Shown: positions 1-25,934, numbered from the stretch's first letter. The stretch: DNA of 64,000 bases from Anaerolineales bacterium (GCA_036397095.1 DASWJQ010000195.1:44070-108069), one strand, 5' to 3'. Notes: generated by a model not told the origin, from the sequence alone. Numbers and translations are program-made.

Positions 1-1010
1 CCACCAGGGCGCTGGAGGCCGGCGGCCCGACCGTCGAGCACAACGGGCAGGCGCTGCTCGGTTGGCCCGATTGGATCGAGGGCCAGGTTGGGCTGACCTT
101 TGCCGTCCTGTTCGCCAGCCCTAAACGCTGGCAGATGGGTGCGTGGGATCACGTCATTTACGAGGACAGCGCCCAGGCCCACTGGCGCTACTGGGGCCAG
201 CTCGATCTGTATGAGCGGCTGGCCGACGACCACCCCGACAAGTTCCAGTTGATCACCAGCCAGACCGGCCTGGCGACGCACCTGGCCGCCTGGGAGGCGA
301 AGGCGGACCAACGCAAGTTGGGCTGGCTGCTGCTGATGGAGGGCGCCGACGGCGTGCGGGCGCCGCAGGAACTGGAAGAATGGTACGGGCGCGGCCTGCG
401 CATCGTCGGGCCGGCTTGGGACCGCACCCGCTATGCCGGCTCGTGCTACGACCCCGGCCCTTTCACCCATGAGGGCTTTGCCTTGCTCGAGGTGATGGCC
501 CAACTGGGCATGCTGCTCGATGTCAGCCACTTGTCCGACGAAGCCGCCCGCCAGGCGGTCGACCGCTACCCGGGCTCCTTGCTGGCGTCGCACGCCAACG
601 TCCGCCGGCTGGTGCCCCACAGCAGGTACCCCGAGCGCCATTTGCATGATGATGTCATTGGCGGCCTGGTCGAGCGCGATGCCGTCATCGGTGTCGTGCT
701 GGCCAACAAATTTCTCAAGGACGGCTGGCAGCCCGGCGATCCGCGTGAGCTGGTGACGATCGAGCACGTGGTTGACCACATCGACGCCATCTGCCAGCTG
801 GCCGGCGACGCCCGGCATGTGGCCCTCGGCTCGGATTTCGACGGCGGCTTTGGCCTGGATCAGGTGCCCGTGGGGCTGGACAGCATTGCCGACCTGGGCA
901 AGATCGGCCAGGCCCTGTTGGCCCGTGGCTACCAGGAAAGTGATATGCTAGGGGTCCTTGGAAACAACTGGATCCGCCTGCTGGAGCGAGCCCTACCCCC
1001 GTCGGATTGA
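1..1010 (+). CDS. Membrane dipeptidase (peptidase M19 family), 5' end cut by window edge; fold-back copy of 24849..25934
   Basis: Open in frame from position 3. Translation identical to the C-terminal 335 aa of the complete copy. Motifs HLSDEA, SHANVR, GSDFDGG. Confidence 0.85.
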   Translation, partial: TRALEAGGPTVEHNGQALLGWPDWIEGQVGLTFAVLFASPKRWQMGAWDHVIYEDSAQAHWRYWGQLDLYERLADDHPDKFQLITSQTGLATHLAAWEAKADQRKLGWLLLMEGADGVRAPQELEEWYGRGLRIVGPAWDRTRYAGSCYDPGPFTHEGFALLEVMAQLGMLLDVSHLSDEAARQAVDRYPGSLLASHANVRRLVPHSRYPERHLHDDVIGGLVERDAVIGVVLANKFLKDGWQPGDPRELVTIEHVVDHIDAICQLAGDARHVALGSDFDGGFGLDQVPVGLDSIADLGKIGQALLARGYQESDMLGVLGNNWIRLLERALPPSD

Positions 1011-1504
1011 TGCCGCTTAGCCCGCTGACTACCCGCCAATCCCGTTGGGCCCGCTATTGGATGACGCTGGCCCTGCTCGGCCTGCTGCTGTTTTTGGTCG
1101 GCGTCGAGCCGGATTTCATCGGCATGGACCGCAGCCCGGTGGTGGGCTTCGTCCAGATCGGCGTCTGGCTAGTGGGCCTGGGGCTGCTGCTGTTGAGCGG
1201 CACGCTGGCGGTGCGCGTCATCCGCAACGGCCATCCCAACAGTCTGCGGGCCGACATTGGCCTGCGCCTGGTGGCCACCGGCTACGTGCTGGCGGCGGTG
1301 GCCTCGCTGGCCGACTTCATCTCGATCGGCGCCCACCGCATGCCGTTTGTCTACTTTGGCCCGGTGCAGACGCTGGGCCTGGTGATCGGCATCGTCACCA
1401 GCCTGCTGGGGGTGGCGCTCTACTGGCCCTACAGTGCCCACCGAACCCAGCCGCAGGACGCCGGTTCCGGCGGCCCGCTGCTGGCCGGTTCGTCCGGCGA
1501 TTGA
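1010..1504 (+). CDS. Hypothetical polytopic membrane protein
   Basis: ATG at 1010 overlaps the dipeptidase stop (TGATG). About four hydrophobic helices (LALLGLLLFLVGV, IGVWLVGLGLLLL, VATGYVLAAVASL, LGLVIGIVTSLLGVAL). No family recognised. Confidence 0.5.
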   Translation: MPLSPLTTRQSRWARYWMTLALLGLLLFLVGVEPDFIGMDRSPVVGFVQIGVWLVGLGLLLLSGTLAVRVIRNGHPNSLRADIGLRLVATGYVLAAVASLADFISIGAHRMPFVYFGPVQTLGLVIGIVTSLLGVALYWPYSAHRTQPQDAGSGGPLLAGSSGD

Positions 1505-1562
1505 AATCTGAGATCGTCTGATCTAATATAGGAAGACCTCGTTCGGCCCATGTGAGGGGGAC

Positions 1563-2231
1563 ATGGCGCAAACGACACCCGATCCACCCCAAACGACACC
1601 AGCCTGGCCAAGCGCCGTCCGTTCGCGCGCTCCTCTTTATTTGCTTTTGGCGTTTTTGCTAGCCTTGCTGGCTGGCATTGCCACCTACCTGTACCTGGAA
1701 GACATCCGCCAGCGCAGCATAGCCACCACCGAGGCCATCGTAGCCTTGGTCGAGCTGCGGCCGGGAGCGGCGATCCAGGCGGAACAAATCGAGGCGCGCG
1801 CCGTGCCCCCTGGCATCCTGCCAACAGGTGCGTTGGTCACAGCAGAGCAAGTGAGCGGCCGGGTTGTGGTTAACCCGGTCGCACCCGGCGAGATCATCCT
1901 GGAGCGAGACTTGGCAGGCAGCGGTGGCGGGGGTCTTTCGGCTCGCCTACCGGACGGGCGCTGGGCAATGGTACTGCCCGCAGGTTGGCTCGTAACACCC
2001 CTGCCGGAACTGGATCGGGGTGACCGCTTGGATCTCTTGGCCTACGCCGTCAGCCAGCCCGCCGAGACGGCCGGGGTGGTCGTCGAAGCGGTCGAGATTC
2101 TGGTGGCGCCAAGCAGCGGCGGGGGCAATCAAGTCACGCTCGCCGTGACGCTGCAAGAGGCGATCGCCGTTGTCTACGCCCGGGCGAATGGGTTTCAGCT
2201 GTTGCCTCTGCTGCGACCACGAGGCGGGTGA
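1563..2231 (+). CDS. cpaB: Flp pilus assembly protein CpaB/RcpC-like
   Basis: 222 aa. N-terminal anchor LYLLLAFLLALLAGIATYLYL followed by a SAF-like region. GAGGGGG SD upstream. First gene of the Tad operon. Confidence 0.7.
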   Translation: MAQTTPDPPQTTPAWPSAVRSRAPLYLLLAFLLALLAGIATYLYLEDIRQRSIATTEAIVALVELRPGAAIQAEQIEARAVPPGILPTGALVTAEQVSGRVVVNPVAPGEIILERDLAGSGGGGLSARLPDGRWAMVLPAGWLVTPLPELDRGDRLDLLAYAVSQPAETAGVVVEAVEILVAPSSGGGNQVTLAVTLQEAIAVVYARANGFQLLPLLRPRGG

Positions 2232-2234
2232 GGG

Positions 2235-2945
2235 ATGCCCACCATCCTGCTTGTTGGCGCCAAAGGCGGTGTCGGCACGTCGATGCTGGCCGCCGGTCTG
2301 GCGCGAACGCTTGCCCGCCGGCAGCCGGTTCTGTTGGTTGATGCTGTCCGGGTTGCTGGCATCGCTGACCTGCTCCTTGATGTGCCGGTCGCACACGACT
2401 GGTCCGATCTGCTGCGGCTGGCCCCGGAGCTAACCGGCCGGCACCTGGCGGCCGTCGCCATTGAAGCCGGGCCCAACCTGCGCCTGCTGGCGGCGCCGGC
2501 TGACTGTGGTCCGTCAATGACGGGAGAACTCCTCACTTCTCTGGCCGGCCTGGGGGGGTTCGTGCTGGTTGACACCGAGCGATCGGCCATCAGACCCCAG
2601 GGAGCCCTGGCCGGGCTTGCCGACCATCTTTTGCTGGTTACGACGACCGACCCGGGTGCGCTGCGCGCTGCCCGCCGGTTGGCCGACGAATGGCCGCCGG
2701 CGGTTCGGCAGCGAGCCGGGTTGGTTGTGAACCAGTGGTCAGCAGGGACCCCGCTTACGCCAGAGCAGTTGGCGGGCGGTTGCCAGTTGCCGCTGGCGGG
2801 CGTTATTCCGGCTGCCGAGCACCTGGCGTTTAACAAAATTCACTTTGGCCAAGTGAGTGGAAGCCAGCGGACCTGGGGGCCGGCTGTCGAGGCTCTGGCC
2901 ACGCGAGCCGCTCGTGCGCTGGCGTCGGAGGCAGCCAACGCATGA
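2235..2945 (+). CDS. TadZ/CpaE-like ParA/MinD-family ATPase
   Basis: 236 aa. Deviant Walker A ILLVGAKGGVGTS at the N-terminus. Sits between cpaB and cpaF. Confidence 0.65.
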   Translation: MPTILLVGAKGGVGTSMLAAGLARTLARRQPVLLVDAVRVAGIADLLLDVPVAHDWSDLLRLAPELTGRHLAAVAIEAGPNLRLLAAPADCGPSMTGELLTSLAGLGGFVLVDTERSAIRPQGALAGLADHLLLVTTTDPGALRAARRLADEWPPAVRQRAGLVVNQWSAGTPLTPEQLAGGCQLPLAGVIPAAEHLAFNKIHFGQVSGSQRTWGPAVEALATRAARALASEAANA

Positions 2946-4156
2946 AGGATCGTCGGGAGCATTCCTCTCAAGACGACCGTCAGCCCGGTGCGGTCGAGGC
3001 CTGGCTTCACCGGACCATCATCGACCAGTTGGAAGGCGCCCTTGAGCCGGGCGATCTGGCAGCGGTGCCCGACAAACCCGCATTGGCGGCACACGCCCAC
3101 CGAATTCTCGCTCGGCGCAATCTGCTGTTGACCGAATCCGAGCTTGAAGATCTGGTCCGAACGGTGGTCGATCGCATCGACGGGCTTGGCCCATTGCAGC
3201 CATTGCTCGACGACCCTTCAATCACCGAGATCATGGTCAATGATCCCGACCATGTGTTCATCGAACGTGACGGGGTTCTTGTGCACACCGATGTGCACTT
3301 GGCCGACGACCAACATCTGTTGCACATCATCGATCGCATTGTCGGACCCATCGGCCGGCGGATTGACGAGGCCTCGCCGTTGGTCGATGCCCGCCTACCC
3401 GACGGCTCGCGCGTCAACGCCATCATCCCCCCGTTGGCGGTTGGGGGACCGGCGCTCACCATTCGCAAGTTCGGTGGCGACCCGTTTACCCTGGAGCGGC
3501 TCGTTAGCCTGGGGACGGTCAGCCAGCAGATGGCCCGCTTTCTGGACCGCTGCGTGCGGCAGCGGTTGAGCGTGATCATTTCAGGCGGGACCGGCTCAGG
3601 CAAGACCACAACGCTCAACGCCCTCAGTCTGTGCATTCCGGCCGGGGAGCGGCTCATCAGCATCGAAGATTCGGCTGAATTGCAGCTGCGCCATAGCCAT
3701 TGGATTTCGCTCGAATCCCGTCCACCAAACCTTGAAGGAGAAGGTGAAGTCAGCATCCGGCGCCTGGTGCGCAACGCCCTGCGGATGCGCCCCGACCGGA
3801 TCATCGTGGGAGAGGTTCGGGGCGAAGAAGCATTTGACATGCTGCAGGCAATGAATACTGGTCATCGCGGTTCGCTGACAACCCTGCATGCCAATTCTCC
3901 GTCGGATGCGTTAACCCGGCTCGAGTCGATGGTCTTGATGGCCGGCTTTGAAATCCCGGTCAGCGCCATTCGCCGCATGATCGGCGGCGCTGTGGATTTG
4001 ATCGTCCAACAAGACCGCCGGGCCGATGGCCGACGCGTGTTGACTTCGATCACTAGGCTGCGCAAACGCACGCCCGAGAGCCTGGAATTGGTTCCACTCT
4101 TCAGATTTGACCCCAAGCAAGGAGTCCACCAGGATTTGATGGGTGGGCTTGGATGA
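2942..4156 (+). CDS. cpaF: Tad pilus secretion ATPase CpaF/TadA
   Basis: 404 aa. Walker A GGTGSGKTT, Walker B/Asp box RPDRIIVGEVRG, His box TGHRGSLTTLHAN. ATGA overlap with the upstream gene. Confidence 0.9.
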   Translation: MKDRREHSSQDDRQPGAVEAWLHRTIIDQLEGALEPGDLAAVPDKPALAAHAHRILARRNLLLTESELEDLVRTVVDRIDGLGPLQPLLDDPSITEIMVNDPDHVFIERDGVLVHTDVHLADDQHLLHIIDRIVGPIGRRIDEASPLVDARLPDGSRVNAIIPPLAVGGPALTIRKFGGDPFTLERLVSLGTVSQQMARFLDRCVRQRLSVIISGGTGSGKTTTLNALSLCIPAGERLISIEDSAELQLRHSHWISLESRPPNLEGEGEVSIRRLVRNALRMRPDRIIVGEVRGEEAFDMLQAMNTGHRGSLTTLHANSPSDALTRLESMVLMAGFEIPVSAIRRMIGGAVDLIVQQDRRADGRRVLTSITRLRKRTPESLELVPLFRFDPKQGVHQDLMGGLG

Positions 4157-5244
4157 GGATGAGGCGTACGGCATTACGCGGGTGGGGGACCTCCAGCCTG
4201 GCATCGCTCCTGCTGATGGCAGCAGTCACGACGATTGCCTACTGGAACCGGGATCAGTTGGTGGCCTGGCACACTGCCGAGCCGCATCTGATGGTCGCCC
4301 TGGTGATTGGCGCCTTCGTGTGGCTGCTCGCCGGACTTGGATTGCTCGGTTATGAGCGATCCATCATTGGTCGGGCGTGGCGAGCAAGACTGGTGGCGCG
4401 AGCCGGCTATGCCGAGCAGGCCATGGATTCCCCTGTTCGTCGCTGGCGCCGACGAGTTGGGGATCCCCTCGAGTTCCTGACTGGCCCGCTGTTGCGCACT
4501 GCTTGGGGACGAACGAGGAGCGCCGAATGGCAGTCGGCCGGTTTCGGCGACCGAGCCTCTCGCTATTTGCTGCTCTTGGGGAGCGCGTTGGTCGTTGGAG
4601 CCCTGGTGGGGTATGCGCTGGCTGGTCCGCTACTGGGACTGGCCTTTGGCCTGACTCTGCCGCTGGCACCAGGCAGTTGGGTCAGGCGCCGGGCCATCGC
4701 AGCCGAGCGGCGCTTCGACGAGCTGTTGCCGGAGGCCCTGGATGCCATCGCCTCGGGCCTGGCTGCTGGGCTGGCATTTGAAGGAGCCGTCGGCTATGCA
4801 GCCACTGAACTACCGAAGCCAGTGGCAGCCAGGTTGGCTCAACTTGCCCGACGTCTGTCCCTGGGGATGCCCGTCGATGAAGCCCTCGATCGGTTGCTTG
4901 AAGAACAACCCGGCGAACAGTTGGCATTGATCGTAGAAGCCATCCAATTGCAGCGCAGGCTTGGTGGCAACCTCATCGAGTTGCTCAAGGAGATGGCCGG
5001 CTTGATTCGTGAGCGGATCGAGTTGGCCAAGGAAGTGCGGGCCGTAAGTGCGCAAGGGCGACTGTCGGGCAGCGTAATTGCTGGACTGGTTCCGGTGTCG
5101 GCGGGCATCCTGCTCTTGTTCAACCCGCGCTACATCGACGTGTTGTTCGAGACGTTGCTCGGACAAGTGCTCTTGGTCATTTCATTGCTATTGCTGCTTG
5201 CGGGGTGGGCAGTGATGTCCATGCTCATTCGAAGGGCGGTGTAG
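4153..5244 (+). CDS. tadB: TadB-like type II secretion system F-domain membrane protein
   Basis: 363 aa. N-terminal TM helices, a soluble T2SS-F-like helical region and a C-terminal TM pair. ATGA overlap with cpaF. Confidence 0.7.
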   Translation: MRMRRTALRGWGTSSLASLLLMAAVTTIAYWNRDQLVAWHTAEPHLMVALVIGAFVWLLAGLGLLGYERSIIGRAWRARLVARAGYAEQAMDSPVRRWRRRVGDPLEFLTGPLLRTAWGRTRSAEWQSAGFGDRASRYLLLLGSALVVGALVGYALAGPLLGLAFGLTLPLAPGSWVRRRAIAAERRFDELLPEALDAIASGLAAGLAFEGAVGYAATELPKPVAARLAQLARRLSLGMPVDEALDRLLEEQPGEQLALIVEAIQLQRRLGGNLIELLKEMAGLIRERIELAKEVRAVSAQGRLSGSVIAGLVPVSAGILLLFNPRYIDVLFETLLGQVLLVISLLLLLAGWAVMSMLIRRAV

Positions 5245-6090
5245 ATGGGCCCATTGCTCATTGGCGGCCTGGTTGGTTGCGCCTTCGGTCTGTTGGTGTA
5301 CAGCCTGATCCACCGGCTTGGCGCTCGCCGGCCACTACTCCCGAAGGCCAACTGGGGATCAAGCGCGGCCGGTTGGCTGAGACTGGTGCCCGTTCCCGGC
5401 GCTCCTGCCCGCAGATGGTCTGGGGACCAAATGGATCTGCGGCTGCGTCGGGCTGGCCTGCCCTGGCCGGCGGAAGCGTTTGTCGGGCTGCGCTGGCTGG
5501 GTTGGCTGGTGGCGTCGCTGGTTGCTCTGGCGTCCTGGCGCTTTCTTGGCCGCGGAGTCATTGCCGGGTTTTTGGGATTGCTCGTGCTGGTGTTGGGAAT
5601 CTGGGGGCCGCAACTTTGGCTGCAGGCCCGCCAAGACCGGCGAAGGCAGGAGGTCGAAGCCGACCTACCTGCCTTGCTCGACCGGCTGATCCTGTCCCTG
5701 GAGGCGGGTCTCGGATTTGAGACTGCCTTTCGCCGTGCCGCTTTTTCGTTGGATCGGGCCCTCGGCGTTGGACTACGCCGTGCTCTGTTCCGGCTGGACG
5801 CCGGTCTGACCAAGGGAGAGGTAATGGGACGTCTCACGCTCGAGCTGCCCTCAACCGATCTGCGCAGTTTCGCCGCCTCTGTCCAGCAGGCGGAACGTCT
5901 CGGAACTTCGCTGGCCAAGACCCTGCGTGTCCAAGCCCGGTTGCTGCGGGCCGAACGGCGGCGCCGGGCCCAGGAAGCCAGCCGGCGCCTGCCGGTGCTG
6001 ATCGTCTTCCCGCTGGTCCTGTTCTTCCTGCCGTCGATGCTCATCATTTATCTGGCGCCGCCATTGCTCCACTTATTCTTGGGGCGTTAG
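5245..6090 (+). CDS. tadC: TadC-like type II secretion system F-domain membrane protein
   Basis: 281 aa. Same TM/helical/TM layout as tadB. Starts one base after the tadB stop. Confidence 0.65.
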   Translation: MGPLLIGGLVGCAFGLLVYSLIHRLGARRPLLPKANWGSSAAGWLRLVPVPGAPARRWSGDQMDLRLRRAGLPWPAEAFVGLRWLGWLVASLVALASWRFLGRGVIAGFLGLLVLVLGIWGPQLWLQARQDRRRQEVEADLPALLDRLILSLEAGLGFETAFRRAAFSLDRALGVGLRRALFRLDAGLTKGEVMGRLTLELPSTDLRSFAASVQQAERLGTSLAKTLRVQARLLRAERRRRAQEASRRLPVLIVFPLVLFFLPSMLIIYLAPPLLHLFLGR

Positions 6091-6091
6091 C

Positions 6092-6529
6092 TTGAAGCAG
6101 GGAAGTCCGGCGGCCGGTGACCGGTGCGGCGGACAGGCGCTTGTCGAGTTCGCCGCCGTCCTGCCGGTCTTGCTGCTGGTGACAATCGGGCTGATCAATT
6201 TGGGCCTGCTGATGGCGGCGCAACTCGAGCTAACGCAAGCCGCCTGGGAAGGTGCCCGGGCTGGCGCCACAATTCTGAACCCGGCCGTCGGCGATGCCGA
6301 AATTCGCGGTGCCATCGACGGCTCCCTTTACCTGCTCGACCCCTCAAGGCTGGCGGTGTCGATCGAGCCCAACCAGGACGAATGGCCGCGCACCGAACCA
6401 TGGCCCGAGCCGCGCGGCCACCCGATCCGAGTGACGCTGTCCTATGACTATCCGCTGTATCTGCCGGGTACGCTGCAGGTGCAGCTGCAGGCCCGCGCCG
6501 TCAGCCGCATCGAGTACCAGAATCCATGA
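6092..6529 (+). CDS. TadE-like pseudopilin/pilus assembly protein
   Basis: 145 aa. N-terminal TadE signature GQALVEFAAVLPVLLLV. Confidence 0.7.
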   Translation: MKQGSPAAGDRCGGQALVEFAAVLPVLLLVTIGLINLGLLMAAQLELTQAAWEGARAGATILNPAVGDAEIRGAIDGSLYLLDPSRLAVSIEPNQDEWPRTEPWPEPRGHPIRVTLSYDYPLYLPGTLQVQLQARAVSRIEYQNP

Positions 6530-7101
6530 ACAACAGGGGCCAGGTGGTGGTGGTCGTGGCGATTGTCTTGATGGTCGCCTTGCTGCTCCTGGCCCTGGGA
6601 GTCGATGGCGGGCGGCTCTATTTGGCCCGAGCCGAACTGCGGCGGGGAGCGCAAGCGGCGGCCGATGCCGGTATCGGTTATGTCGCCGACGCCATGGTGA
6701 CGCTGGCTGTTCCGCGTCAAACAGAAGCGGCAGGCTTGCCACCATGCGTCCCCGACGGAGACTTCGGTGCAGACGGCGGCGTCTGTACGGCCACGCCTGA
6801 ACCGGCGGCAATCCAGCATTGGTTGTCCGACGACGACCGGGCGACGCTGGCGGGCCCTGAGGTTCAGGCGACGGCCCAGGGGATTGCGGCCAACTACGCC
6901 AACCTGAACAGCATTGTGCCGGGGGAGGCGGGGGTCGAGGCGTTGGATCTCGATTACCCCCAGCACTACGAACCCGAGGATGAGCGACTGACCTTCTCGG
7001 TGACGATCACCCGCCAGATGGTGATTCTGCTGGCCGGATTGCTCGACCGCGAATGGGTGCAGCTTCAAGTCGAAGCCCGGTCCCAAATTCCGCAGCGATG
7101 A
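6526..7101 (+). CDS. TadG-like pilus assembly protein
   Basis: 191 aa. N-terminal anchor VVVVVAIVLMVALLLLALGVDGGRLYLARAELRRGAQAAADAG typical of the TadG-type N-terminal domain. 4-nt overlap with the upstream gene. Confidence 0.55.
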   Translation: MNNRGQVVVVVAIVLMVALLLLALGVDGGRLYLARAELRRGAQAAADAGIGYVADAMVTLAVPRQTEAAGLPPCVPDGDFGADGGVCTATPEPAAIQHWLSDDDRATLAGPEVQATAQGIAANYANLNSIVPGEAGVEALDLDYPQHYEPEDERLTFSVTITRQMVILLAGLLDREWVQLQVEARSQIPQR

Positions 7102-7841
7102 CCGCGTCTACCAGGCAAGTTCTGGGTCTGGCCACCGGCATTCTGCCATTGGCGGCGTTGGCCGGAGCCGGCACATGGCTGGGTGCCCGTCTAATCACGC
7201 GGATGCCTGGCGTGCCGCCGGCGCTGCCTCTGCTGTTGGCGTGCCTGGCGTTTCTGTTGCTGTCGCTCGGTCGCAACCAGCGGGCAGGCTGGACCGTATG
7301 GGCCTTGCTCGGATTGGCGCTGGCGGTGGGCCTGGTCACCGCCACCCTGGGCCTACCGGAAGCGCCAAACATGCCGGCGACGCTTGGCCTGGCCGGCGCG
7401 CTGCTGGCAGGCGGATTGGCATTGGGCCTGAGTCGCTGGCCCGGCTGGCTGTGGGCTCGGTTGGCCGGCGGTGCGGGTCGCAGTCTGTGGCCCCGCGTTC
7501 TGTGGCTGGGGACCTGGGCCTACCTGCTGGGTTGGATCGCCGTCTGGCTGCTGGCGGCGGGACCCGGAATCCGACGGTTGTGGGCCGGCGTAGGTCTGCA
7601 GTTGTTCACCGGCCTGACCGCGCTGTGGGCCGTGGGGCTGGATGTCCACAGTGGTCCGGCCGCAGTCCGACCGCCGGAGTCCACCCGGGGAGGGTCGGAC
7701 GGAGCGCCTGCCCAGGTGGACCTTCGAGGTCAGACCGAGTCCCCCGCGACCTGGAACGCCGAGCTGGTAGGGGCGGCCGCCGATCTGTACTTGCTCGGCC
7801 TCAACCTAATGCTGGCGGCGGGGGTGCTGCTGGCGGCATGA
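7098..7841 (+). CDS. Polytopic membrane protein, last gene of the Tad operon
   Basis: Start set at the internal ATG 7098, which makes an ATGA overlap with the tadG-like stop. 247 aa with 6-7 hydrophobic helices. C-terminus DLYLLGLNLMLAAGVLL faintly resembles BI-1/YccA. Confidence 0.5.
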   Translation: MTASTRQVLGLATGILPLAALAGAGTWLGARLITRMPGVPPALPLLLACLAFLLLSLGRNQRAGWTVWALLGLALAVGLVTATLGLPEAPNMPATLGLAGALLAGGLALGLSRWPGWLWARLAGGAGRSLWPRVLWLGTWAYLLGWIAVWLLAAGPGIRRLWAGVGLQLFTGLTALWAVGLDVHSGPAAVRPPESTRGGSDGAPAQVDLRGQTESPATWNAELVGAAADLYLLGLNLMLAAGVLLAA

Positions 7842-7880
7842 CGGCTTTTCCGCAACCCCGGGGAGTCAAGTACGAAGCTT

Positions 7881-7943
7881 GACCTCCGAGGTCCACACGA
7901 GGAGGTCCAGAGTTCGACTAGCGCCGTGTGGACCTAGAAGGTC
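7881..7943. repeat. Cluster of short palindromes between convergent genes: GACCTCcGAGGTC (7881-7893), stem GGTCCACAC/GTGTGGACC (7890-7898/7927-7935), GACCTagaAGGTC (7931-7943)
   Basis: Read directly. Lies between two convergent stop codons, so a bidirectional terminator role is plausible. The 13-nt palindrome recurs at 44275 and 44324. Confidence 0.5.
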
Positions 7944-7961
7944 ACGCCGAATGCGCGCCGT

Positions 7962-9203: not shown

Positions 9204-9317
9204 CGGTCGGCGCTCATCCTACCCGCTGGCTCCGGCCGGCGAAAGACCCACCCCGGTCCTGTCCTTGGTAGAATGAACCACAATTACTGGTAGCTGGAGG
9301 GGGAAGGTAGGCAGTCG

Positions 9318-9917: not shown

Positions 9918-10097
9918 GCCACATCACCTAACCTCCAAGGCAACCCCGGCGGTTGGCTGGTACCAGACGCGCCCGAGTGCACCTTGGAAGTCGGGTCGAT
10001 CAGGGCGGTGTAGGAGTCAGCGCCCGGCCCTCTGCTGCGCGAAAAAGCCCCCTTGTTAATACTGCTGTGAATGAATGCCGAGTTTGCCGGCCTTCGC

Positions 10098-16541: not shown

Positions 16542-16655
16542 CGACTGCCTACCTTCCCCCTCCAGCTACCAGTAATTGTGGTTCATTCTACCAAGGACAG
16601 GACCGGGGTGGGTCTTTCGCCGGCCGGAGCCAGCGGGTAGGATGAGCGCCGACCG

Positions 16656-17897: not shown

Positions 17898-17915
17898 ACG
17901 GCGCGCATTCGGCGT

Positions 17916-17978
17916 GACCTTCTAGGTCCACACGGCGCTAGTCGAACTCTGGACCTCCTCGTGTGGACCTCGGAGGTC
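17916..17978. repeat. Cluster of short palindromes incl. GACCTCgGAGGTC (mirror copy)
   Basis: Exact mirror of 7881..7943. Confidence 0.5.
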
Positions 17979-18017
17979 AAGCTTCGTACTTGACTCCCCG
18001 GGGTTGCGGAAAAGCCG

Positions 18018-18761
18018 TCATGCCGCCAGCAGCACCCCCGCCGCCAGCATTAGGTTGAGGCCGAGCAAGTACAGATCGGCGGCCGCCCCTACCAGCTCGG
18101 CGTTCCAGGTCGCGGGGGACTCGGTCTGACCTCGAAGGTCCACCTGGGCAGGCGCTCCGTCCGACCCTCCCCGGGTGGACTCCGGCGGTCGGACTGCGGC
18201 CGGACCACTGTGGACATCCAGCCCCACGGCCCACAGCGCGGTCAGGCCGGTGAACAACTGCAGACCTACGCCGGCCCACAACCGTCGGATTCCGGGTCCC
18301 GCCGCCAGCAGCCAGACGGCGATCCAACCCAGCAGGTAGGCCCAGGTCCCCAGCCACAGAACGCGGGGCCACAGACTGCGACCCGCACCGCCGGCCAACC
18401 GAGCCCACAGCCAGCCGGGCCAGCGACTCAGGCCCAATGCCAATCCGCCTGCCAGCAGCGCGCCGGCCAGGCCAAGCGTCGCCGGCATGTTTGGCGCTTC
18501 CGGTAGGCCCAGGGTGGCGGTGACCAGGCCCACCGCCAGCGCCAATCCGAGCAAGGCCCATACGGTCCAGCCTGCCCGCTGGTTGCGACCGAGCGACAGC
18601 AACAGAAACGCCAGGCACGCCAACAGCAGAGGCAGCGCCGGCGGCACGCCAGGCATCCGCGTGATTAGACGGGCACCCAGCCATGTGCCGGCTCCGGCCA
18701 ACGCCGCCAATGGCAGAATGCCGGTGGCCAGACCCAGAACTTGCCTGGTAGACGCGGTCAT
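18018..18761 (-). CDS. Polytopic membrane protein, last gene of the Tad operon
   Basis: Exact mirror of 7098..7841. Confidence 0.5.
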   Translation of the reverse strand: MTASTRQVLGLATGILPLAALAGAGTWLGARLITRMPGVPPALPLLLACLAFLLLSLGRNQRAGWTVWALLGLALAVGLVTATLGLPEAPNMPATLGLAGALLAGGLALGLSRWPGWLWARLAGGAGRSLWPRVLWLGTWAYLLGWIAVWLLAAGPGIRRLWAGVGLQLFTGLTALWAVGLDVHSGPAAVRPPESTRGGSDGAPAQVDLRGQTESPATWNAELVGAAADLYLLGLNLMLAAGVLLAA

Positions 18762-19333
18762 CGCTGCGGAATTTGGGACCGGGCTTCGACTTGAAGCTGC
18801 ACCCATTCGCGGTCGAGCAATCCGGCCAGCAGAATCACCATCTGGCGGGTGATCGTCACCGAGAAGGTCAGTCGCTCATCCTCGGGTTCGTAGTGCTGGG
18901 GGTAATCGAGATCCAACGCCTCGACCCCCGCCTCCCCCGGCACAATGCTGTTCAGGTTGGCGTAGTTGGCCGCAATCCCCTGGGCCGTCGCCTGAACCTC
19001 AGGGCCCGCCAGCGTCGCCCGGTCGTCGTCGGACAACCAATGCTGGATTGCCGCCGGTTCAGGCGTGGCCGTACAGACGCCGCCGTCTGCACCGAAGTCT
19101 CCGTCGGGGACGCATGGTGGCAAGCCTGCCGCTTCTGTTTGACGCGGAACAGCCAGCGTCACCATGGCGTCGGCGACATAACCGATACCGGCATCGGCCG
19201 CCGCTTGCGCTCCCCGCCGCAGTTCGGCTCGGGCCAAATAGAGCCGCCCGCCATCGACTCCCAGGGCCAGGAGCAGCAAGGCGACCATCAAGACAATCGC
19301 CACGACCACCACCACCTGGCCCCTGTTGTTCAT
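18758..19333 (-). CDS. TadG-like pilus assembly protein
   Basis: Exact mirror of 6526..7101. Confidence 0.55.
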   Translation of the reverse strand: MNNRGQVVVVVAIVLMVALLLLALGVDGGRLYLARAELRRGAQAAADAGIGYVADAMVTLAVPRQTEAAGLPPCVPDGDFGADGGVCTATPEPAAIQHWLSDDDRATLAGPEVQATAQGIAANYANLNSIVPGEAGVEALDLDYPQHYEPEDERLTFSVTITRQMVILLAGLLDREWVQLQVEARSQIPQR

Positions 19334-19767
19334 GGATTCTGGTACTCGATGCGGCTGACGGCGCGGGCCTGCAGCTGCACCTGCAGCGTACCCGGCAGAT
19401 ACAGCGGATAGTCATAGGACAGCGTCACTCGGATCGGGTGGCCGCGCGGCTCGGGCCATGGTTCGGTGCGCGGCCATTCGTCCTGGTTGGGCTCGATCGA
19501 CACCGCCAGCCTTGAGGGGTCGAGCAGGTAAAGGGAGCCGTCGATGGCACCGCGAATTTCGGCATCGCCGACGGCCGGGTTCAGAATTGTGGCGCCAGCC
19601 CGGGCACCTTCCCAGGCGGCTTGCGTTAGCTCGAGTTGCGCCGCCATCAGCAGGCCCAAATTGATCAGCCCGATTGTCACCAGCAGCAAGACCGGCAGGA
19701 CGGCGGCGAACTCGACAAGCGCCTGTCCGCCGCACCGGTCACCGGCCGCCGGACTTCCCTGCTTCAA
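19330..19767 (-). CDS. TadE-like protein
   Basis: Exact mirror of 6092..6529. Confidence 0.7.
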   Translation of the reverse strand: MKQGSPAAGDRCGGQALVEFAAVLPVLLLVTIGLINLGLLMAAQLELTQAAWEGARAGATILNPAVGDAEIRGAIDGSLYLLDPSRLAVSIEPNQDEWPRTEPWPEPRGHPIRVTLSYDYPLYLPGTLQVQLQARAVSRIEYQNP

Positions 19768-19768
19768 G

Positions 19769-20614
19769 CTAACGCCCCAAGAATAAGTGGAGCAATGGCG
19801 GCGCCAGATAAATGATGAGCATCGACGGCAGGAAGAACAGGACCAGCGGGAAGACGATCAGCACCGGCAGGCGCCGGCTGGCTTCCTGGGCCCGGCGCCG
19901 CCGTTCGGCCCGCAGCAACCGGGCTTGGACACGCAGGGTCTTGGCCAGCGAAGTTCCGAGACGTTCCGCCTGCTGGACAGAGGCGGCGAAACTGCGCAGA
20001 TCGGTTGAGGGCAGCTCGAGCGTGAGACGTCCCATTACCTCTCCCTTGGTCAGACCGGCGTCCAGCCGGAACAGAGCACGGCGTAGTCCAACGCCGAGGG
20101 CCCGATCCAACGAAAAAGCGGCACGGCGAAAGGCAGTCTCAAATCCGAGACCCGCCTCCAGGGACAGGATCAGCCGGTCGAGCAAGGCAGGTAGGTCGGC
20201 TTCGACCTCCTGCCTTCGCCGGTCTTGGCGGGCCTGCAGCCAAAGTTGCGGCCCCCAGATTCCCAACACCAGCACGAGCAATCCCAAAAACCCGGCAATG
20301 ACTCCGCGGCCAAGAAAGCGCCAGGACGCCAGAGCAACCAGCGACGCCACCAGCCAACCCAGCCAGCGCAGCCCGACAAACGCTTCCGCCGGCCAGGGCA
20401 GGCCAGCCCGACGCAGCCGCAGATCCATTTGGTCCCCAGACCATCTGCGGGCAGGAGCGCCGGGAACGGGCACCAGTCTCAGCCAACCGGCCGCGCTTGA
20501 TCCCCAGTTGGCCTTCGGGAGTAGTGGCCGGCGAGCGCCAAGCCGGTGGATCAGGCTGTACACCAACAGACCGAAGGCGCAACCAACCAGGCCGCCAATG
20601 AGCAATGGGCCCAT
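19769..20614 (-). CDS. tadC: TadC-like T2SS-F membrane protein
   Basis: Exact mirror of 5245..6090. Confidence 0.65.
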   Translation of the reverse strand: MGPLLIGGLVGCAFGLLVYSLIHRLGARRPLLPKANWGSSAAGWLRLVPVPGAPARRWSGDQMDLRLRRAGLPWPAEAFVGLRWLGWLVASLVALASWRFLGRGVIAGFLGLLVLVLGIWGPQLWLQARQDRRRQEVEADLPALLDRLILSLEAGLGFETAFRRAAFSLDRALGVGLRRALFRLDAGLTKGEVMGRLTLELPSTDLRSFAASVQQAERLGTSLAKTLRVQARLLRAERRRRAQEASRRLPVLIVFPLVLFFLPSMLIIYLAPPLLHLFLGR

Positions 20615-21706
20615 CTACACCGCCCTTCGAATGAGCATGGACATCACTGCCCACCCCGCAAGCAGCAATAGCAATGAAATGACCAAGAGCACTTGTCCGA
20701 GCAACGTCTCGAACAACACGTCGATGTAGCGCGGGTTGAACAAGAGCAGGATGCCCGCCGACACCGGAACCAGTCCAGCAATTACGCTGCCCGACAGTCG
20801 CCCTTGCGCACTTACGGCCCGCACTTCCTTGGCCAACTCGATCCGCTCACGAATCAAGCCGGCCATCTCCTTGAGCAACTCGATGAGGTTGCCACCAAGC
20901 CTGCGCTGCAATTGGATGGCTTCTACGATCAATGCCAACTGTTCGCCGGGTTGTTCTTCAAGCAACCGATCGAGGGCTTCATCGACGGGCATCCCCAGGG
21001 ACAGACGTCGGGCAAGTTGAGCCAACCTGGCTGCCACTGGCTTCGGTAGTTCAGTGGCTGCATAGCCGACGGCTCCTTCAAATGCCAGCCCAGCAGCCAG
21101 GCCCGAGGCGATGGCATCCAGGGCCTCCGGCAACAGCTCGTCGAAGCGCCGCTCGGCTGCGATGGCCCGGCGCCTGACCCAACTGCCTGGTGCCAGCGGC
21201 AGAGTCAGGCCAAAGGCCAGTCCCAGTAGCGGACCAGCCAGCGCATACCCCACCAGGGCTCCAACGACCAACGCGCTCCCCAAGAGCAGCAAATAGCGAG
21301 AGGCTCGGTCGCCGAAACCGGCCGACTGCCATTCGGCGCTCCTCGTTCGTCCCCAAGCAGTGCGCAACAGCGGGCCAGTCAGGAACTCGAGGGGATCCCC
21401 AACTCGTCGGCGCCAGCGACGAACAGGGGAATCCATGGCCTGCTCGGCATAGCCGGCTCGCGCCACCAGTCTTGCTCGCCACGCCCGACCAATGATGGAT
21501 CGCTCATAACCGAGCAATCCAAGTCCGGCGAGCAGCCACACGAAGGCGCCAATCACCAGGGCGACCATCAGATGCGGCTCGGCAGTGTGCCAGGCCACCA
21601 ACTGATCCCGGTTCCAGTAGGCAATCGTCGTGACTGCTGCCATCAGCAGGAGCGATGCCAGGCTGGAGGTCCCCCACCCGCGTAATGCCGTACGCCTCAT
21701 CCTCAT
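20615..21706 (-). CDS. tadB: TadB-like T2SS-F membrane protein
   Basis: Exact mirror of 4153..5244. Confidence 0.7.
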   Translation of the reverse strand: MRMRRTALRGWGTSSLASLLLMAAVTTIAYWNRDQLVAWHTAEPHLMVALVIGAFVWLLAGLGLLGYERSIIGRAWRARLVARAGYAEQAMDSPVRRWRRRVGDPLEFLTGPLLRTAWGRTRSAEWQSAGFGDRASRYLLLLGSALVVGALVGYALAGPLLGLAFGLTLPLAPGSWVRRRAIAAERRFDELLPEALDAIASGLAAGLAFEGAVGYAATELPKPVAARLAQLARRLSLGMPVDEALDRLLEEQPGEQLALIVEAIQLQRRLGGNLIELLKEMAGLIRERIELAKEVRAVSAQGRLSGSVIAGLVPVSAGILLLFNPRYIDVLFETLLGQVLLVISLLLLLAGWAVMSMLIRRAV

Positions 21707-22917
21707 CCAAGCCCACCCATCAAATCCTGGTGGACTCCTTGCTTGGGGTCAAATCTGAAGAGTGGAACCAATTCCAGGCTCTCGGGCGTGCGTTTGCGCA
21801 GCCTAGTGATCGAAGTCAACACGCGTCGGCCATCGGCCCGGCGGTCTTGTTGGACGATCAAATCCACAGCGCCGCCGATCATGCGGCGAATGGCGCTGAC
21901 CGGGATTTCAAAGCCGGCCATCAAGACCATCGACTCGAGCCGGGTTAACGCATCCGACGGAGAATTGGCATGCAGGGTTGTCAGCGAACCGCGATGACCA
22001 GTATTCATTGCCTGCAGCATGTCAAATGCTTCTTCGCCCCGAACCTCTCCCACGATGATCCGGTCGGGGCGCATCCGCAGGGCGTTGCGCACCAGGCGCC
22101 GGATGCTGACTTCACCTTCTCCTTCAAGGTTTGGTGGACGGGATTCGAGCGAAATCCAATGGCTATGGCGCAGCTGCAATTCAGCCGAATCTTCGATGCT
22201 GATGAGCCGCTCCCCGGCCGGAATGCACAGACTGAGGGCGTTGAGCGTTGTGGTCTTGCCTGAGCCGGTCCCGCCTGAAATGATCACGCTCAACCGCTGC
22301 CGCACGCAGCGGTCCAGAAAGCGGGCCATCTGCTGGCTGACCGTCCCCAGGCTAACGAGCCGCTCCAGGGTAAACGGGTCGCCACCGAACTTGCGAATGG
22401 TGAGCGCCGGTCCCCCAACCGCCAACGGGGGGATGATGGCGTTGACGCGCGAGCCGTCGGGTAGGCGGGCATCGACCAACGGCGAGGCCTCGTCAATCCG
22501 CCGGCCGATGGGTCCGACAATGCGATCGATGATGTGCAACAGATGTTGGTCGTCGGCCAAGTGCACATCGGTGTGCACAAGAACCCCGTCACGTTCGATG
22601 AACACATGGTCGGGATCATTGACCATGATCTCGGTGATTGAAGGGTCGTCGAGCAATGGCTGCAATGGGCCAAGCCCGTCGATGCGATCGACCACCGTTC
22701 GGACCAGATCTTCAAGCTCGGATTCGGTCAACAGCAGATTGCGCCGAGCGAGAATTCGGTGGGCGTGTGCCGCCAATGCGGGTTTGTCGGGCACCGCTGC
22801 CAGATCGCCCGGCTCAAGGGCGCCTTCCAACTGGTCGATGATGGTCCGGTGAAGCCAGGCCTCGACCGCACCGGGCTGACGGTCGTCTTGAGAGGAATGC
22901 TCCCGACGATCCTTCAT
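21703..22917 (-). CDS. cpaF: Tad pilus secretion ATPase CpaF/TadA
   Basis: Exact mirror of 2942..4156. Confidence 0.9.
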   Translation of the reverse strand: MKDRREHSSQDDRQPGAVEAWLHRTIIDQLEGALEPGDLAAVPDKPALAAHAHRILARRNLLLTESELEDLVRTVVDRIDGLGPLQPLLDDPSITEIMVNDPDHVFIERDGVLVHTDVHLADDQHLLHIIDRIVGPIGRRIDEASPLVDARLPDGSRVNAIIPPLAVGGPALTIRKFGGDPFTLERLVSLGTVSQQMARFLDRCVRQRLSVIISGGTGSGKTTTLNALSLCIPAGERLISIEDSAELQLRHSHWISLESRPPNLEGEGEVSIRRLVRNALRMRPDRIIVGEVRGEEAFDMLQAMNTGHRGSLTTLHANSPSDALTRLESMVLMAGFEIPVSAIRRMIGGAVDLIVQQDRRADGRRVLTSITRLRKRTPESLELVPLFRFDPKQGVHQDLMGGLG

Positions 22918-23624
22918 GCGTTGGCTGCCTCCGACGCCAGCGCACGAGCGGCTCGCGTGGCCAGAGCCTCGACAGCCGGCCCCCAGGTCCGCTGGCTTCC
23001 ACTCACTTGGCCAAAGTGAATTTTGTTAAACGCCAGGTGCTCGGCAGCCGGAATAACGCCCGCCAGCGGCAACTGGCAACCGCCCGCCAACTGCTCTGGC
23101 GTAAGCGGGGTCCCTGCTGACCACTGGTTCACAACCAACCCGGCTCGCTGCCGAACCGCCGGCGGCCATTCGTCGGCCAACCGGCGGGCAGCGCGCAGCG
23201 CACCCGGGTCGGTCGTCGTAACCAGCAAAAGATGGTCGGCAAGCCCGGCCAGGGCTCCCTGGGGTCTGATGGCCGATCGCTCGGTGTCAACCAGCACGAA
23301 CCCCCCCAGGCCGGCCAGAGAAGTGAGGAGTTCTCCCGTCATTGACGGACCACAGTCAGCCGGCGCCGCCAGCAGGCGCAGGTTGGGCCCGGCTTCAATG
23401 GCGACGGCCGCCAGGTGCCGGCCGGTTAGCTCCGGGGCCAGCCGCAGCAGATCGGACCAGTCGTGTGCGACCGGCACATCAAGGAGCAGGTCAGCGATGC
23501 CAGCAACCCGGACAGCATCAACCAACAGAACCGGCTGCCGGCGGGCAAGCGTTCGCGCCAGACCGGCGGCCAGCATCGACGTGCCGACACCGCCTTTGGC
23601 GCCAACAAGCAGGATGGTGGGCAT
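22914..23624 (-). CDS. TadZ/CpaE-like ParA/MinD-family ATPase
   Basis: Exact mirror of 2235..2945. Confidence 0.65.
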   Translation of the reverse strand: MPTILLVGAKGGVGTSMLAAGLARTLARRQPVLLVDAVRVAGIADLLLDVPVAHDWSDLLRLAPELTGRHLAAVAIEAGPNLRLLAAPADCGPSMTGELLTSLAGLGGFVLVDTERSAIRPQGALAGLADHLLLVTTTDPGALRAARRLADEWPPAVRQRAGLVVNQWSAGTPLTPEQLAGGCQLPLAGVIPAAEHLAFNKIHFGQVSGSQRTWGPAVEALATRAARALASEAANA

Positions 23625-23627
23625 CCC

Positions 23628-24296
23628 TCACCCGCCTCGTGGTCGCAGCAGAGGCAACAGCTGAAACCCATTCGCCCGGGCGTAGACAACGGCGATCGCC
23701 TCTTGCAGCGTCACGGCGAGCGTGACTTGATTGCCCCCGCCGCTGCTTGGCGCCACCAGAATCTCGACCGCTTCGACGACCACCCCGGCCGTCTCGGCGG
23801 GCTGGCTGACGGCGTAGGCCAAGAGATCCAAGCGGTCACCCCGATCCAGTTCCGGCAGGGGTGTTACGAGCCAACCTGCGGGCAGTACCATTGCCCAGCG
23901 CCCGTCCGGTAGGCGAGCCGAAAGACCCCCGCCACCGCTGCCTGCCAAGTCTCGCTCCAGGATGATCTCGCCGGGTGCGACCGGGTTAACCACAACCCGG
24001 CCGCTCACTTGCTCTGCTGTGACCAACGCACCTGTTGGCAGGATGCCAGGGGGCACGGCGCGCGCCTCGATTTGTTCCGCCTGGATCGCCGCTCCCGGCC
24101 GCAGCTCGACCAAGGCTACGATGGCCTCGGTGGTGGCTATGCTGCGCTGGCGGATGTCTTCCAGGTACAGGTAGGTGGCAATGCCAGCCAGCAAGGCTAG
24201 CAAAAACGCCAAAAGCAAATAAAGAGGAGCGCGCGAACGGACGGCGCTTGGCCAGGCTGGTGTCGTTTGGGGTGGATCGGGTGTCGTTTGCGCCAT
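23628..24296 (-). CDS. cpaB: CpaB/RcpC-like Flp pilus assembly protein
   Basis: Exact mirror of 1563..2231. Confidence 0.7.
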   Translation of the reverse strand: MAQTTPDPPQTTPAWPSAVRSRAPLYLLLAFLLALLAGIATYLYLEDIRQRSIATTEAIVALVELRPGAAIQAEQIEARAVPPGILPTGALVTAEQVSGRVVVNPVAPGEIILERDLAGSGGGGLSARLPDGRWAMVLPAGWLVTPLPELDRGDRLDLLAYAVSQPAETAGVVVEAVEILVAPSSGGGNQVTLAVTLQEAIAVVYARANGFQLLPLLRPRGG

Positions 24297-24354
24297 GTCC
24301 CCCTCACATGGGCCGAACGAGGTCTTCCTATATTAGATCAGACGATCTCAGATT

Positions 24355-24849
24355 TCAATCGCCGGACGAACCGGCCAGCAGCGGGCCGCCGGAACCGGCG
24401 TCCTGCGGCTGGGTTCGGTGGGCACTGTAGGGCCAGTAGAGCGCCACCCCCAGCAGGCTGGTGACGATGCCGATCACCAGGCCCAGCGTCTGCACCGGGC
24501 CAAAGTAGACAAACGGCATGCGGTGGGCGCCGATCGAGATGAAGTCGGCCAGCGAGGCCACCGCCGCCAGCACGTAGCCGGTGGCCACCAGGCGCAGGCC
24601 AATGTCGGCCCGCAGACTGTTGGGATGGCCGTTGCGGATGACGCGCACCGCCAGCGTGCCGCTCAACAGCAGCAGCCCCAGGCCCACTAGCCAGACGCCG
24701 ATCTGGACGAAGCCCACCACCGGGCTGCGGTCCATGCCGATGAAATCCGGCTCGACGCCGACCAAAAACAGCAGCAGGCCGAGCAGGGCCAGCGTCATCC
24801 AATAGCGGGCCCAACGGGATTGGCGGGTAGTCAGCGGGCTAAGCGGCAT
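24355..24849 (-). CDS. Hypothetical polytopic membrane protein
   Basis: Exact mirror of 1010..1504. Confidence 0.5.
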   Translation of the reverse strand: MPLSPLTTRQSRWARYWMTLALLGLLLFLVGVEPDFIGMDRSPVVGFVQIGVWLVGLGLLLLSGTLAVRVIRNGHPNSLRADIGLRLVATGYVLAAVASLADFISIGAHRMPFVYFGPVQTLGLVIGIVTSLLGVALYWPYSAHRTQPQDAGSGGPLLAGSSGD

Positions 24850-25934
24850 CAATCCGACGGGGGTAGGGCTCGCTCCAGCAGGCGGATCCAGTTGTTTCCA
24901 AGGACCCCTAGCATATCACTTTCCTGGTAGCCACGGGCCAACAGGGCCTGGCCGATCTTGCCCAGGTCGGCAATGCTGTCCAGCCCCACGGGCACCTGAT
25001 CCAGGCCAAAGCCGCCGTCGAAATCCGAGCCGAGGGCCACATGCCGGGCGTCGCCGGCCAGCTGGCAGATGGCGTCGATGTGGTCAACCACGTGCTCGAT
25101 CGTCACCAGCTCACGCGGATCGCCGGGCTGCCAGCCGTCCTTGAGAAATTTGTTGGCCAGCACGACACCGATGACGGCATCGCGCTCGACCAGGCCGCCA
25201 ATGACATCATCATGCAAATGGCGCTCGGGGTACCTGCTGTGGGGCACCAGCCGGCGGACGTTGGCGTGCGACGCCAGCAAGGAGCCCGGGTAGCGGTCGA
25301 CCGCCTGGCGGGCGGCTTCGTCGGACAAGTGGCTGACATCGAGCAGCATGCCCAGTTGGGCCATCACCTCGAGCAAGGCAAAGCCCTCATGGGTGAAAGG
25401 GCCGGGGTCGTAGCACGAGCCGGCATAGCGGGTGCGGTCCCAAGCCGGCCCGACGATGCGCAGGCCGCGCCCGTACCATTCTTCCAGTTCCTGCGGCGCC
25501 CGCACGCCGTCGGCGCCCTCCATCAGCAGCAGCCAGCCCAACTTGCGTTGGTCCGCCTTCGCCTCCCAGGCGGCCAGGTGCGTCGCCAGGCCGGTCTGGC
25601 TGGTGATCAACTGGAACTTGTCGGGGTGGTCGTCGGCCAGCCGCTCATACAGATCGAGCTGGCCCCAGTAGCGCCAGTGGGCCTGGGCGCTGTCCTCGTA
25701 AATGACGTGATCCCACGCACCCATCTGCCAGCGTTTAGGGCTGGCGAACAGGACGGCAAAGGTCAGCCCAACCTGGCCCTCGATCCAATCGGGCCAACCG
25801 AGCAGCGCCTGCCCGTTGTGCTCGACGGTCGGGCCGCCGGCCTCCAGCGCCCTGGTGGCCTCGACCGAGCGTGTGTAATCGCGGCCAAAGGTCTCAATGT
25901 TCCAGGCCAGGTCTTCGTGCCCATCCACGATCAT
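24849..25934 (-). CDS. Membrane dipeptidase (peptidase M19 family), complete copy
   Basis: 361 aa from the ATG at 25934, which forms an ATGA overlap with the upstream LLM gene stop. MIVDGHEDLAWN, HLSDEA, SHANVR, GSDFDGG. The gene crosses the right end of the palindrome at 25858. Confidence 0.85.
   Translation of the reverse strand: MIVDGHEDLAWNIETFGRDYTRSVEATRALEAGGPTVEHNGQALLGWPDWIEGQVGLTFAVLFASPKRWQMGAWDHVIYEDSAQAHWRYWGQLDLYERLADDHPDKFQLITSQTGLATHLAAWEAKADQRKLGWLLLMEGADGVRAPQELEEWYGRGLRIVGPAWDRTRYAGSCYDPGPFTHEGFALLEVMAQLGMLLDVSHLSDEAARQAVDRYPGSLLASHANVRRLVPHSRYPERHLHDDVIGGLVERDAVIGVVLANKFLKDGWQPGDPRELVTIEHVVDHIDAICQLAGDARHVALGSDFDGGFGLDQVPVGLDSIADLGKIGQALLARGYQESDMLGVLGNNWIRLLERALPPSD

Follow-up and report, generated by a model that had tools for sequence, protein, structure and literature searches.

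The first 25,858 nucleotides (nt) of a stretch of DNA from an Anaerolineales bacterium (GCA_036397095.1, DASWJQ010000195.1:44070-108069; 64,000 nt, the whole of which is called the window below) form a perfect palindrome, which is very probably a technical fold-back and not a genome structure of the organism. The centre of this palindrome coincides to the base with that of a short palindrome, here called P, which belongs to the native locus, and 12 contigs of the same species from other samples pass through P into an unrelated flank. Bases 1-12929 are most likely a false mirror copy of the sequence that follows them. If real, such a palindrome, stable and without a spacer over at least 25.9 kb of a bacterial chromosome, would be exceptional; the one presented by the window does not represent a new type of biological element.

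The palindrome and the native order of the locus

A direct test of the symmetry paired each base x from 1 to 12929 with base 25859-x; all 12,929 pairs proved complementary (0 mismatches), a run of consecutive pairs for which chance is irrelevant. The centre of the palindrome (1-25858) lies at 12929/12930 and reads …GGGGCGGCCGA/TCGGCCGCCCC…, without a spacer (here and below, a slash between sequences or adjacent positions marks a centre or junction). The letters immediately around it are …CGGCCGA/TCGGCCG…, and the same test found no adapter sequence at the centre. No N letters occur in the window, its GC content is uniform at about 0.60-0.70, and no further inverted repeats of 40 bp or more are present in 25859-64000.

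The arm length of 12,929 bp is a lower bound, because the start of the window cuts the left arm. The right arm appears to end at 25858, but this position mirrors position 1 and is likewise set only by the window start; the right arm runs on at 25859, within an M19 dipeptidase gene. Each arm carries 14 complete genes plus the truncated dipeptidase gene. The complete genes encode a sortase (mirror copy at 12099-12890, minus strand), a sortase_YLP-like protein, a membrane protein, an NfuA-like Fe-S protein, a DUF3048 protein and nine products of a Tad/Cpa cluster, which comprises Tad, TadE, two T2SSF (TadB/C), T2SSE (CpaF/TadA), ParA/CbiA-like and SAF/CpaB proteins. The features of the palindrome are as follows.

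1..12929, left arm: 12930-25858 repeated as its exact reverse complement, truncated where the window starts
12916..12943, native perfect palindrome P, GGAGGGGCGGCCGA/TCGGCCGCCCCTCC: 28 bp long, extended to 12915-12944 (30 bp) wherever a strain has A rather than G as the outer left base
12930..25858, right arm: native sequence collinear with independent contigs, continuing at 25859
12969..13760, plus strand, sortase gene (263 amino acids; PF04203 / sortase_fam): the first gene right of the centre
13788-14501, minus strand, sortase_YLP-like protein
18018..24296, minus strand, Tad/Cpa pilus cluster (Pfam assignments made on identical proteins of native contigs)
24849..25934, minus strand, Peptidase_M19 dipeptidase gene with a TTG start (PF01244), spanning 25858/25859

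The original prediction, made from the sequence alone, had described an exact 25.9-kb palindrome without a spacer, a left arm that leaves the window, a right arm that alone enters unique sequence at 25859 in the dipeptidase gene, and fifteen mirrored genes including a whole Tad operon. All of this was borne out: not one pair is mismatched, the left arm is cut at position 1, and the fifteen genes are the 14 complete ones plus the truncated dipeptidase gene.

Relatives of the locus were gathered from public metagenome contigs by exact-protein look-ups with the sortase and with the TadA/CpaF ATPase. A protein identical to the window sortase is present on 16 public contigs. The related contigs (L001-L027) are 99.2-99.8% identical to the window and were therefore taken to be from the same species. 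The centre of the palindrome is covered by 12 of them, from 12 samples: four European Nucleotide Archive (ENA) MEGAHIT assemblies (ERZ27256803, -807, -989, -991) and eight Joint Genome Institute (JGI) metagenomes (3300037755, -714, -470, -704, -762, -692, 3300030606, 3300030620). All 12 read through the centre into an unrelated flank of 1.6-10 kb, hereafter A, and a mirror copy left of the sortase is absent from every one. The longest flanks extend over 9,961 nt on the A side (L003) and over 12,350 nt on the opposite side, B (L022).

The native order is thus A-P-B, in which A ends with a response regulator gene and a gene for a CLIPPER-domain protein, and B begins with the sortase gene and continues through the Tad cluster to the dipeptidase gene. 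The gene immediately left of the sortase encodes a CLIPPER/DUF7927-domain protein of 440-451 amino acids, preceded by the response regulator and by unrelated genes; the A flank of L003 includes succinate dehydrogenase, and a peptidase M3 is also found on the A side. BLAST comparison with the contigs detected no A-flank sequence anywhere in the window, as would be expected of a contig that ends or folds at P. At the other end of the right arm, ten contigs (L011, L012, L014, L016, L020 and L023-L027) cross 25858/25859 uninterrupted. This collinearity identifies the right arm as the native copy, and the Tad/Cpa cluster is single-copy in the native contigs.

Other searches added little. Exact-protein look-ups with the dipeptidase and with GroEL had no matches, and those with the sortase, TadA and LonC yielded related contigs only, none longer than 57 kb. 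A 62-nt pattern fitting either the native or the fold-back form matched two JGI contigs only, both of which are native on the left. A 58-mer specific for the junction had 0 matches in viral contigs, an exact DNA scan of the species-representative genomes of GTDB likewise gave 0 matches, and a scan of the same genomes guided by the sortase protein found no relative. GroEL homologues assign the organism, which is uncultured, to Chloroflexota in a broad sense only, the best named match being from Anaerolineales at 55% identity.

The uninterrupted A-P-B order bears on one of the biological origins put forward in the original prediction, namely a hairpin telomere, or else an artificially circularised linear replicon with terminal inverted repeats. 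In the telomeric form, which could also be a replicated-telomere junction, P would be the target of a protelomerase; in size (28-30 bp) and perfect dyad symmetry it is comparable to the target sites of TelA, ResT and TelN. Reading round a hairpin end would, moreover, yield exactly B'-P-B, where B' is the reverse complement of B. The window thus shares with the protelomerase telomeres of Borrelia (ResT), Agrobacterium (TelA) and phage N15 (TelN) a spacerless inverted repeat on a short dyad site. Unlike those telomeres, the site is internal and contiguous in the relatives, its flanks are housekeeping sequence, and no protelomerase is seen in the window. A contiguous A-P-B junction, found in 12 conspecific contigs, is not expected at a chromosomal hairpin telomere, and the dyad centre is not a replicon end in any of them.

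Ordinary chromosome lies on both sides of P. The A side has succinate dehydrogenase, the gene for the probable sortase substrate (see below) and peptidase M3; on the B side are the Tad pilus, LonC, Usp, a luciferase-like oxidoreductase, lipoyl synthase, citrate synthase and GroEL, together with a histidine kinase and reductive-dehalogenase-like genes. P itself sits between the substrate gene and the sortase gene in the manner of a terminator. The open reading frames (ORFs) of about 51 kb of unique sequence and about 10 kb of flank showed neither a protelomerase nor a terminal-protein family, a weak negative given the small share of the genome covered. Chloroflexota are not known for linear replicons. 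As for terminal inverted repeats, their copies would be parted by the whole replicon, would abut at the artificial join only and would usually be accompanied by terminal-protein genes; in the window the arms abut without a unique body on this side, and the place where they abut is an internal intergenic site in the relatives. With relatives that run unbroken across the site and housekeeping chromosome on either flank, a telomeric origin is contradicted for the species, and we consider it extremely improbable for the window.

The short native palindrome at the centre

The native sequence around P reads …TAGTCGCAAACGAC(G or A)GGAGGGGCGGCCGA/TCGGCCGCCCCTCCTCGAGGCGGCTGGCGAAGCGCCCCTATG…, and in all 12 native contigs the arms of P measure 14 nt, where G occupies the outer left position, or 15 nt, where A does. 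P and the 25.9-kb palindrome share one centre, to the base. The window matches the native sequence throughout P and departs from it only at the outer left edge of P; BLAST alignments between window and native sequence end at 12916/12915, that is, 14-15 nt left of the centre. As single-stranded DNA, P is predicted to fold into a 12-bp stem with a 4-nt GATC loop (-19.1 kcal/mol). The CLIPPER-domain gene stops about 12 nt before P, and the sortase gene starts 25 nt after it. A consensus scan called no canonical intrinsic terminator at P, which was not classed as one because it lacks a T tract. P would best be described as a GC-rich hairpin that is terminator-like only. Rfam and tRNA scans of the window gave no matches, hence no RNA gene or known structured element is placed at the centre.

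Among the spacerless palindromes in the unique sequence of the window (51 kb), P alone has arms that exceed 7 nt, and a random junction would meet the centre of P with a probability of about 1/51,000. It is this coincidence of centres that points to P as the site that nucleated the fold-back. The same figure led to the rejection of a missed SMRTbell adapter, whose junction at an arbitrary end would have to fall on the centre of P by chance, and of blunt head-to-head ligation of random ends. A nanopore read passing from template to complement at a fragment end is disfavoured in the same way by a junction that lies on P. Of the ways to a chimera listed in the original prediction, the missed adapter and random head-to-head ligation drop out; snap-back, template switching and graph traversal through a palindromic k-mer gain from the position of the junction.

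A more specific form of ligation, in which fragments with self-complementary ends of the GATC/PvuI type are joined head-to-head and restore a perfect palindrome, would account for the letters at the junction, since the centre is GA/TC within CGATCG and overhangs of this kind do join head-to-head. The unique 51 kb holds 348 GATC sites, however, so that the one at the centre of P would be picked with a probability of about 1/348, and libraries made by restriction digestion are unusual for metagenome assemblies. This origin is very unlikely.

The position of the junction on P would also be expected if the fold-back were physically real. One such scenario involves real molecules that are not inherited: in some cells, or in extracted DNA, the chromosome would be broken at P, the B end closed by a hairpin, for example through resolution of a cruciform or through resection of the break followed by snap-back, and the product sequenced as B'-P-B. 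The palindrome would then stand for a physical DNA species and not for the structure of the genome. The exact centring of the palindrome on native P fits this scenario, and hairpin-capped linear intermediates at short inverted repeats are documented in yeast (PMC10766183). On the other hand, a GC-rich palindrome of 28-30 bp is short for cruciform extrusion, and the sequence offers no distinction between such molecules and snap-back in vitro. We regard hairpin-capped fragments as a very unlikely source; were they the source, the consequence for annotation would be the same, and the left arm would be discarded.

The other scenario is a genuine, heritable inverted duplication of at least 12.9 kb of B, produced by fold-back priming or template switching at P during replication. 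It would give the order A-…-B'-P-B, with a second junction left of the window. A short inverted repeat does stand at the centre of symmetry, which is a known signature of nucleation in vivo (PMC10766183; Tanaka et al. 2002, as cited in PMC12870357). Such a repeat does not discriminate, because it is common to artefact and in-vivo models. The lack of any divergence between the arms would suit a very recent event, and the strain represented by the window differs structurally from its relatives elsewhere, in carrying an insertion sequence (IS) at 37297-38630.

Against a duplication, the mirror arrangement is absent from all 12 related contigs, and neither a second junction nor A-flank sequence is visible in the window. 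The arms are identical to the last base, as in a consensus made twice from the same reads. Furthermore, a spacerless perfect palindrome of at least 25.9 kb would be expected to be lethal or quickly deleted; in bacteria, long perfect palindromes are cleaved by SbcCD or are deleted by replication slippage. The original prediction had admitted a real inverted duplication as its third possibility; no positive support for it emerged, and a duplication appears very unlikely.

Palindromes formed in vivo at short inverted repeats have been described, both in origin-dependent inverted-repeat amplification (ODIRA; PMC10766183) and by Tanaka et al. (2002), the latter as cited in PMC12870357. The palindrome of the window resembles them in being large and centred on a short native inverted repeat. 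Those palindromes, by contrast, arose in eukaryotes under selection and are backed by copy number and independent junction reads, whereas the one in the window is absent from 12 related populations. Taking both physical scenarios together, it is improbable that P nucleated a genuine fold-back, whether as a heritable inverted duplication of at least 25.9 kb or as abundant hairpin-capped chromosome fragments. If it did, this would imply an unusual tolerance of giant perfect palindromes, for example through the lack of SbcCD-type processing.

A probable technical fold-back at P

A technical fold-back at P, which the original prediction had also placed first in the form of a chimera, is supported by the 12 native A-P-B contigs, which are 99.2-99.8% identical to the window and have no mirror copy. 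The halves of the palindrome are exact reverse complements, free of divergence, spacer or adapter; conspecific contigs, from populations other than the source sample, cross the breakpoint uninverted; and the junction stands on a short self-complementary sequence that is native to the locus. All three are properties of fold-back artefacts. Symmetry, native order and the coincidence of centres are direct observations, from which we infer the technical event and the route that produced it. A B strand ending in or near P would fold back on itself, and its complement would then be copied or read. The product, B'-P-B, would contain a perfectly rebuilt P and no spacer.

Two routes to such a product can be envisaged. 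The first, to which a rough share of three-fifths is given, would pass through a fold-back molecule or read. In one variant, a 3' end would snap back at P and then be elongated, either in multiple displacement amplification (MDA) by phi29 polymerase or in end-repair. In a second variant, a displaced strand would re-prime on the complementary arm of P, and in a third, a natively hairpin-linked fragment would be read round the turn by a long-read sequencer. Whichever the variant, the assembler would finally have extended the end of the contig using the fold-back read. This first route is weakly favoured because the window passes through two IS elements, hinting at long reads.

The second route, with a rough share of little more than a third, would be the traversal of a de Bruijn graph through P. 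When k+1 is at most 28-30, P has at its centre a (k+1)-mer identical to its reverse complement, which forms an "inverted loop". If the A branch were missing or pruned, an assembler of the SPAdes or MEGAHIT type would pass through the loop, and its output would be a palindromic unitig. Such pruning could be favoured by strain variation left of P, where a G/A polymorphism occurs at its edge and gene content differs 2-3 kb upstream (alcohol dehydrogenase (ADH) genes versus an 88-amino-acid gene).

Both routes have counterparts in the literature. Fold-back reads from Oxford Nanopore Technologies (ONT) and PacBio instruments are described by Heinz, Meyerson & Li (2026, PMC12870357) as nearly perfectly palindromic, without intervening sequence, and as a cause of tangled assemblies. 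According to the same authors, they also arise in unamplified libraries, and other reads at the locus show no breakpoint. The palindrome of the window agrees with these artefacts in its near-perfect self-complementarity, in having no sequence between its halves, in the unbroken state of other molecules at the locus and, if technical, in the false inverted duplication that it brings into an assembly. It differs in that those studies deal with reads, whereas it is known from an assembled consensus only, with arms of at least 12.9 kb. Palindromes from whole-genome amplification that lead to inverted duplications in assemblies are likewise treated in the paper on Pacasus (PMC6218980). A junction exactly on a native palindrome of 28-30 bp, as seen here, is not described in the passages of PMC12870357 and PMC6218980 that the analysis covered.

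Among chimeras generated by phi29 MDA, more than 85% are inverted, and most prime at complementary segments of 2-21 nt (Lasken & Stockwell 2007, PMC1855051). The first route would be of this kind, with the displaced 3' end of a strand priming on a short stretch of the same molecule that is complementary to it, in this case the 14-15-nt arm of P. MDA chimeras are usually asymmetric with an intervening deletion, however, whereas nothing is deleted at the junction in the window, because the switch sits at a spacerless palindrome.

For the second route, the closest parallel is provided by lonely inverted loops, which give rise to palindromic unitigs that SPAdes and MEGAHIT emit whole and unsplit (Rahman & Medvedev 2022, PMC9528984). 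In these, a self-complementary (k-1)-suffix sends the walk back on the opposite strand, and P gives k-mers of this type at k+1 of at most 28-30. A lonely inverted loop requires that the true continuation, A, be absent or pruned and that k be small (21 or 29). A pure unitig palindrome would also have equal arms, but the left arm in the window leaves at position 1. In work on single-cell genomes, palindromic contigs with exact mirror symmetry were treated as artefacts and taken out (10.1101/2023.06.06.543983).

Several points weigh against a technical origin, which is, to begin with, inferred rather than observed. The short inverted repeat at the junction is equally a signature of genuine fold-back duplication in vivo. 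The native contigs come from other samples and strains, are 0.2-0.8% divergent and are not demonstrably the source population. Each route also makes demands of its own: graph traversal works only with a k of about 29 or less and with the A branch lost, which does not happen by default, and a fold-back molecule requires arms of at least 12.9 kb; a single fold-back read, if it were the cause, would have to be 25.9 kb or longer.

Annotation of the locus and other features of the window

The advice of the original prediction to discard 1..12929 and halve the gene counts stands, and the value of the analysis lies mainly in quality control, through the removal of bases 1-12929 and the halving of these counts. 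Without the mirror, one copy each would be left of the Tad operon, of the two sortase genes and of 12 further genes. The true left neighbour of the sequence from 12916 onward would be the CLIPPER-domain gene, judging from its position in L001-L010. If kept, the mirror copy would inflate estimates of duplication or contamination for the genome bin and create a spurious divergent promoter arrangement. More generally, native spacerless palindromes of about 30 bp are predictable sites for fold-back contigs, and comparison with independent assemblies resolves such cases without reads.

The CLIPPER-domain protein restored to the left of the sortase ends in …LLIPVTG…, a hydrophobic stretch and a charged tail. 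The …LLIPVTG… end reads as an LPXTG-like sorting signal, and for this reason the protein is probably a substrate of the adjoining sortase. In L001 (4330-5685), this CLIPPER/DUF7927 protein is a Thr/Pro-rich surface protein with the LIPVTG motif, a transmembrane segment and a charged tail; its length varies by strain, being either 451 or 440 amino acids. The sortase_YLP-type protein at 13788-14501 (minus strand) also holds LIPVTG, just past its N-terminal hydrophobic segment (…AADLIPVTGAPP…). It is odd for a putative sortase to bear the sorting motif of its neighbour's substrate.

The conspecific populations differ from each other in the A flank 2-6 kb left of P (L001-L006). A fragmented set of zinc-ADH genes lies upstream of the response regulator in L001, L002 and L004. 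L003, L005 and L006 have the 88-amino-acid gene instead, and L003 has, in addition, genes for a GerE-type regulator and a trypsin-like protease. On the B side, L001 carries an intergenic insertion of about 141 bp (10760-10902) between the DUF3048 gene and the Tad cluster, which is absent at the corresponding place in the window (17961-17978). The insertion is bounded by an 18-bp direct repeat, GTGTGGACCTCGGAGGTC, and holds a 24-bp perfect palindrome of its own (the region of GGGGCGCATGGC/CATGCGCCCC); it may be a small mobile or slippage-derived element.

Two mobile elements are found in the unique sequence of the window. The IS at 37297-38630 is 1,334 bp long and has an rve/HTH_21 (IS3-like) transposase ORF at 37346-38245 on the minus strand. 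Its terminal inverted repeats are imperfect and span about 22 bp, and 3 bp of the target (ATC) are duplicated on its flanks. The element sits between a region with a PA14-domain gene and the lipoyl synthase gene, and it is strain-specific, since it is absent from the otherwise collinear contigs L023, L024 and L025. A second mobile-element gene, at 44548-45702 on the plus strand, encodes a transposase of the IS110/IS116/IS902 family (PF02371).

Two ORFs of about 335-340 amino acids, at 39818-40843 (minus strand) and 40950-41954 (plus strand), lie between the lipoyl synthase and citrate synthase genes and match nothing in Pfam or NCBIfam, even at E<=1. They are considered conserved hypothetical genes, because genes of 309 and 334 amino acids are called at the same place in L023-L025.

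Finally, two genes of the reductive dehalogenase family, at 53738-55135 and 59713-61131 (both on the minus strand), combine PF13486 with 4Fe-4S domains. They flank the GroEL gene (57630-59252) and adjoin a GAF/HAMP histidine kinase gene. Between the two, at 55627-57210 on the plus strand, a 4Fe-4S protein with a twin-arginine translocation (TAT) signal is encoded, which is devoid of PF13486. The host of these dehalogenase-family genes is a Chloroflexota genome of 64% GC that is only a distant relative of Dehalococcoidia.

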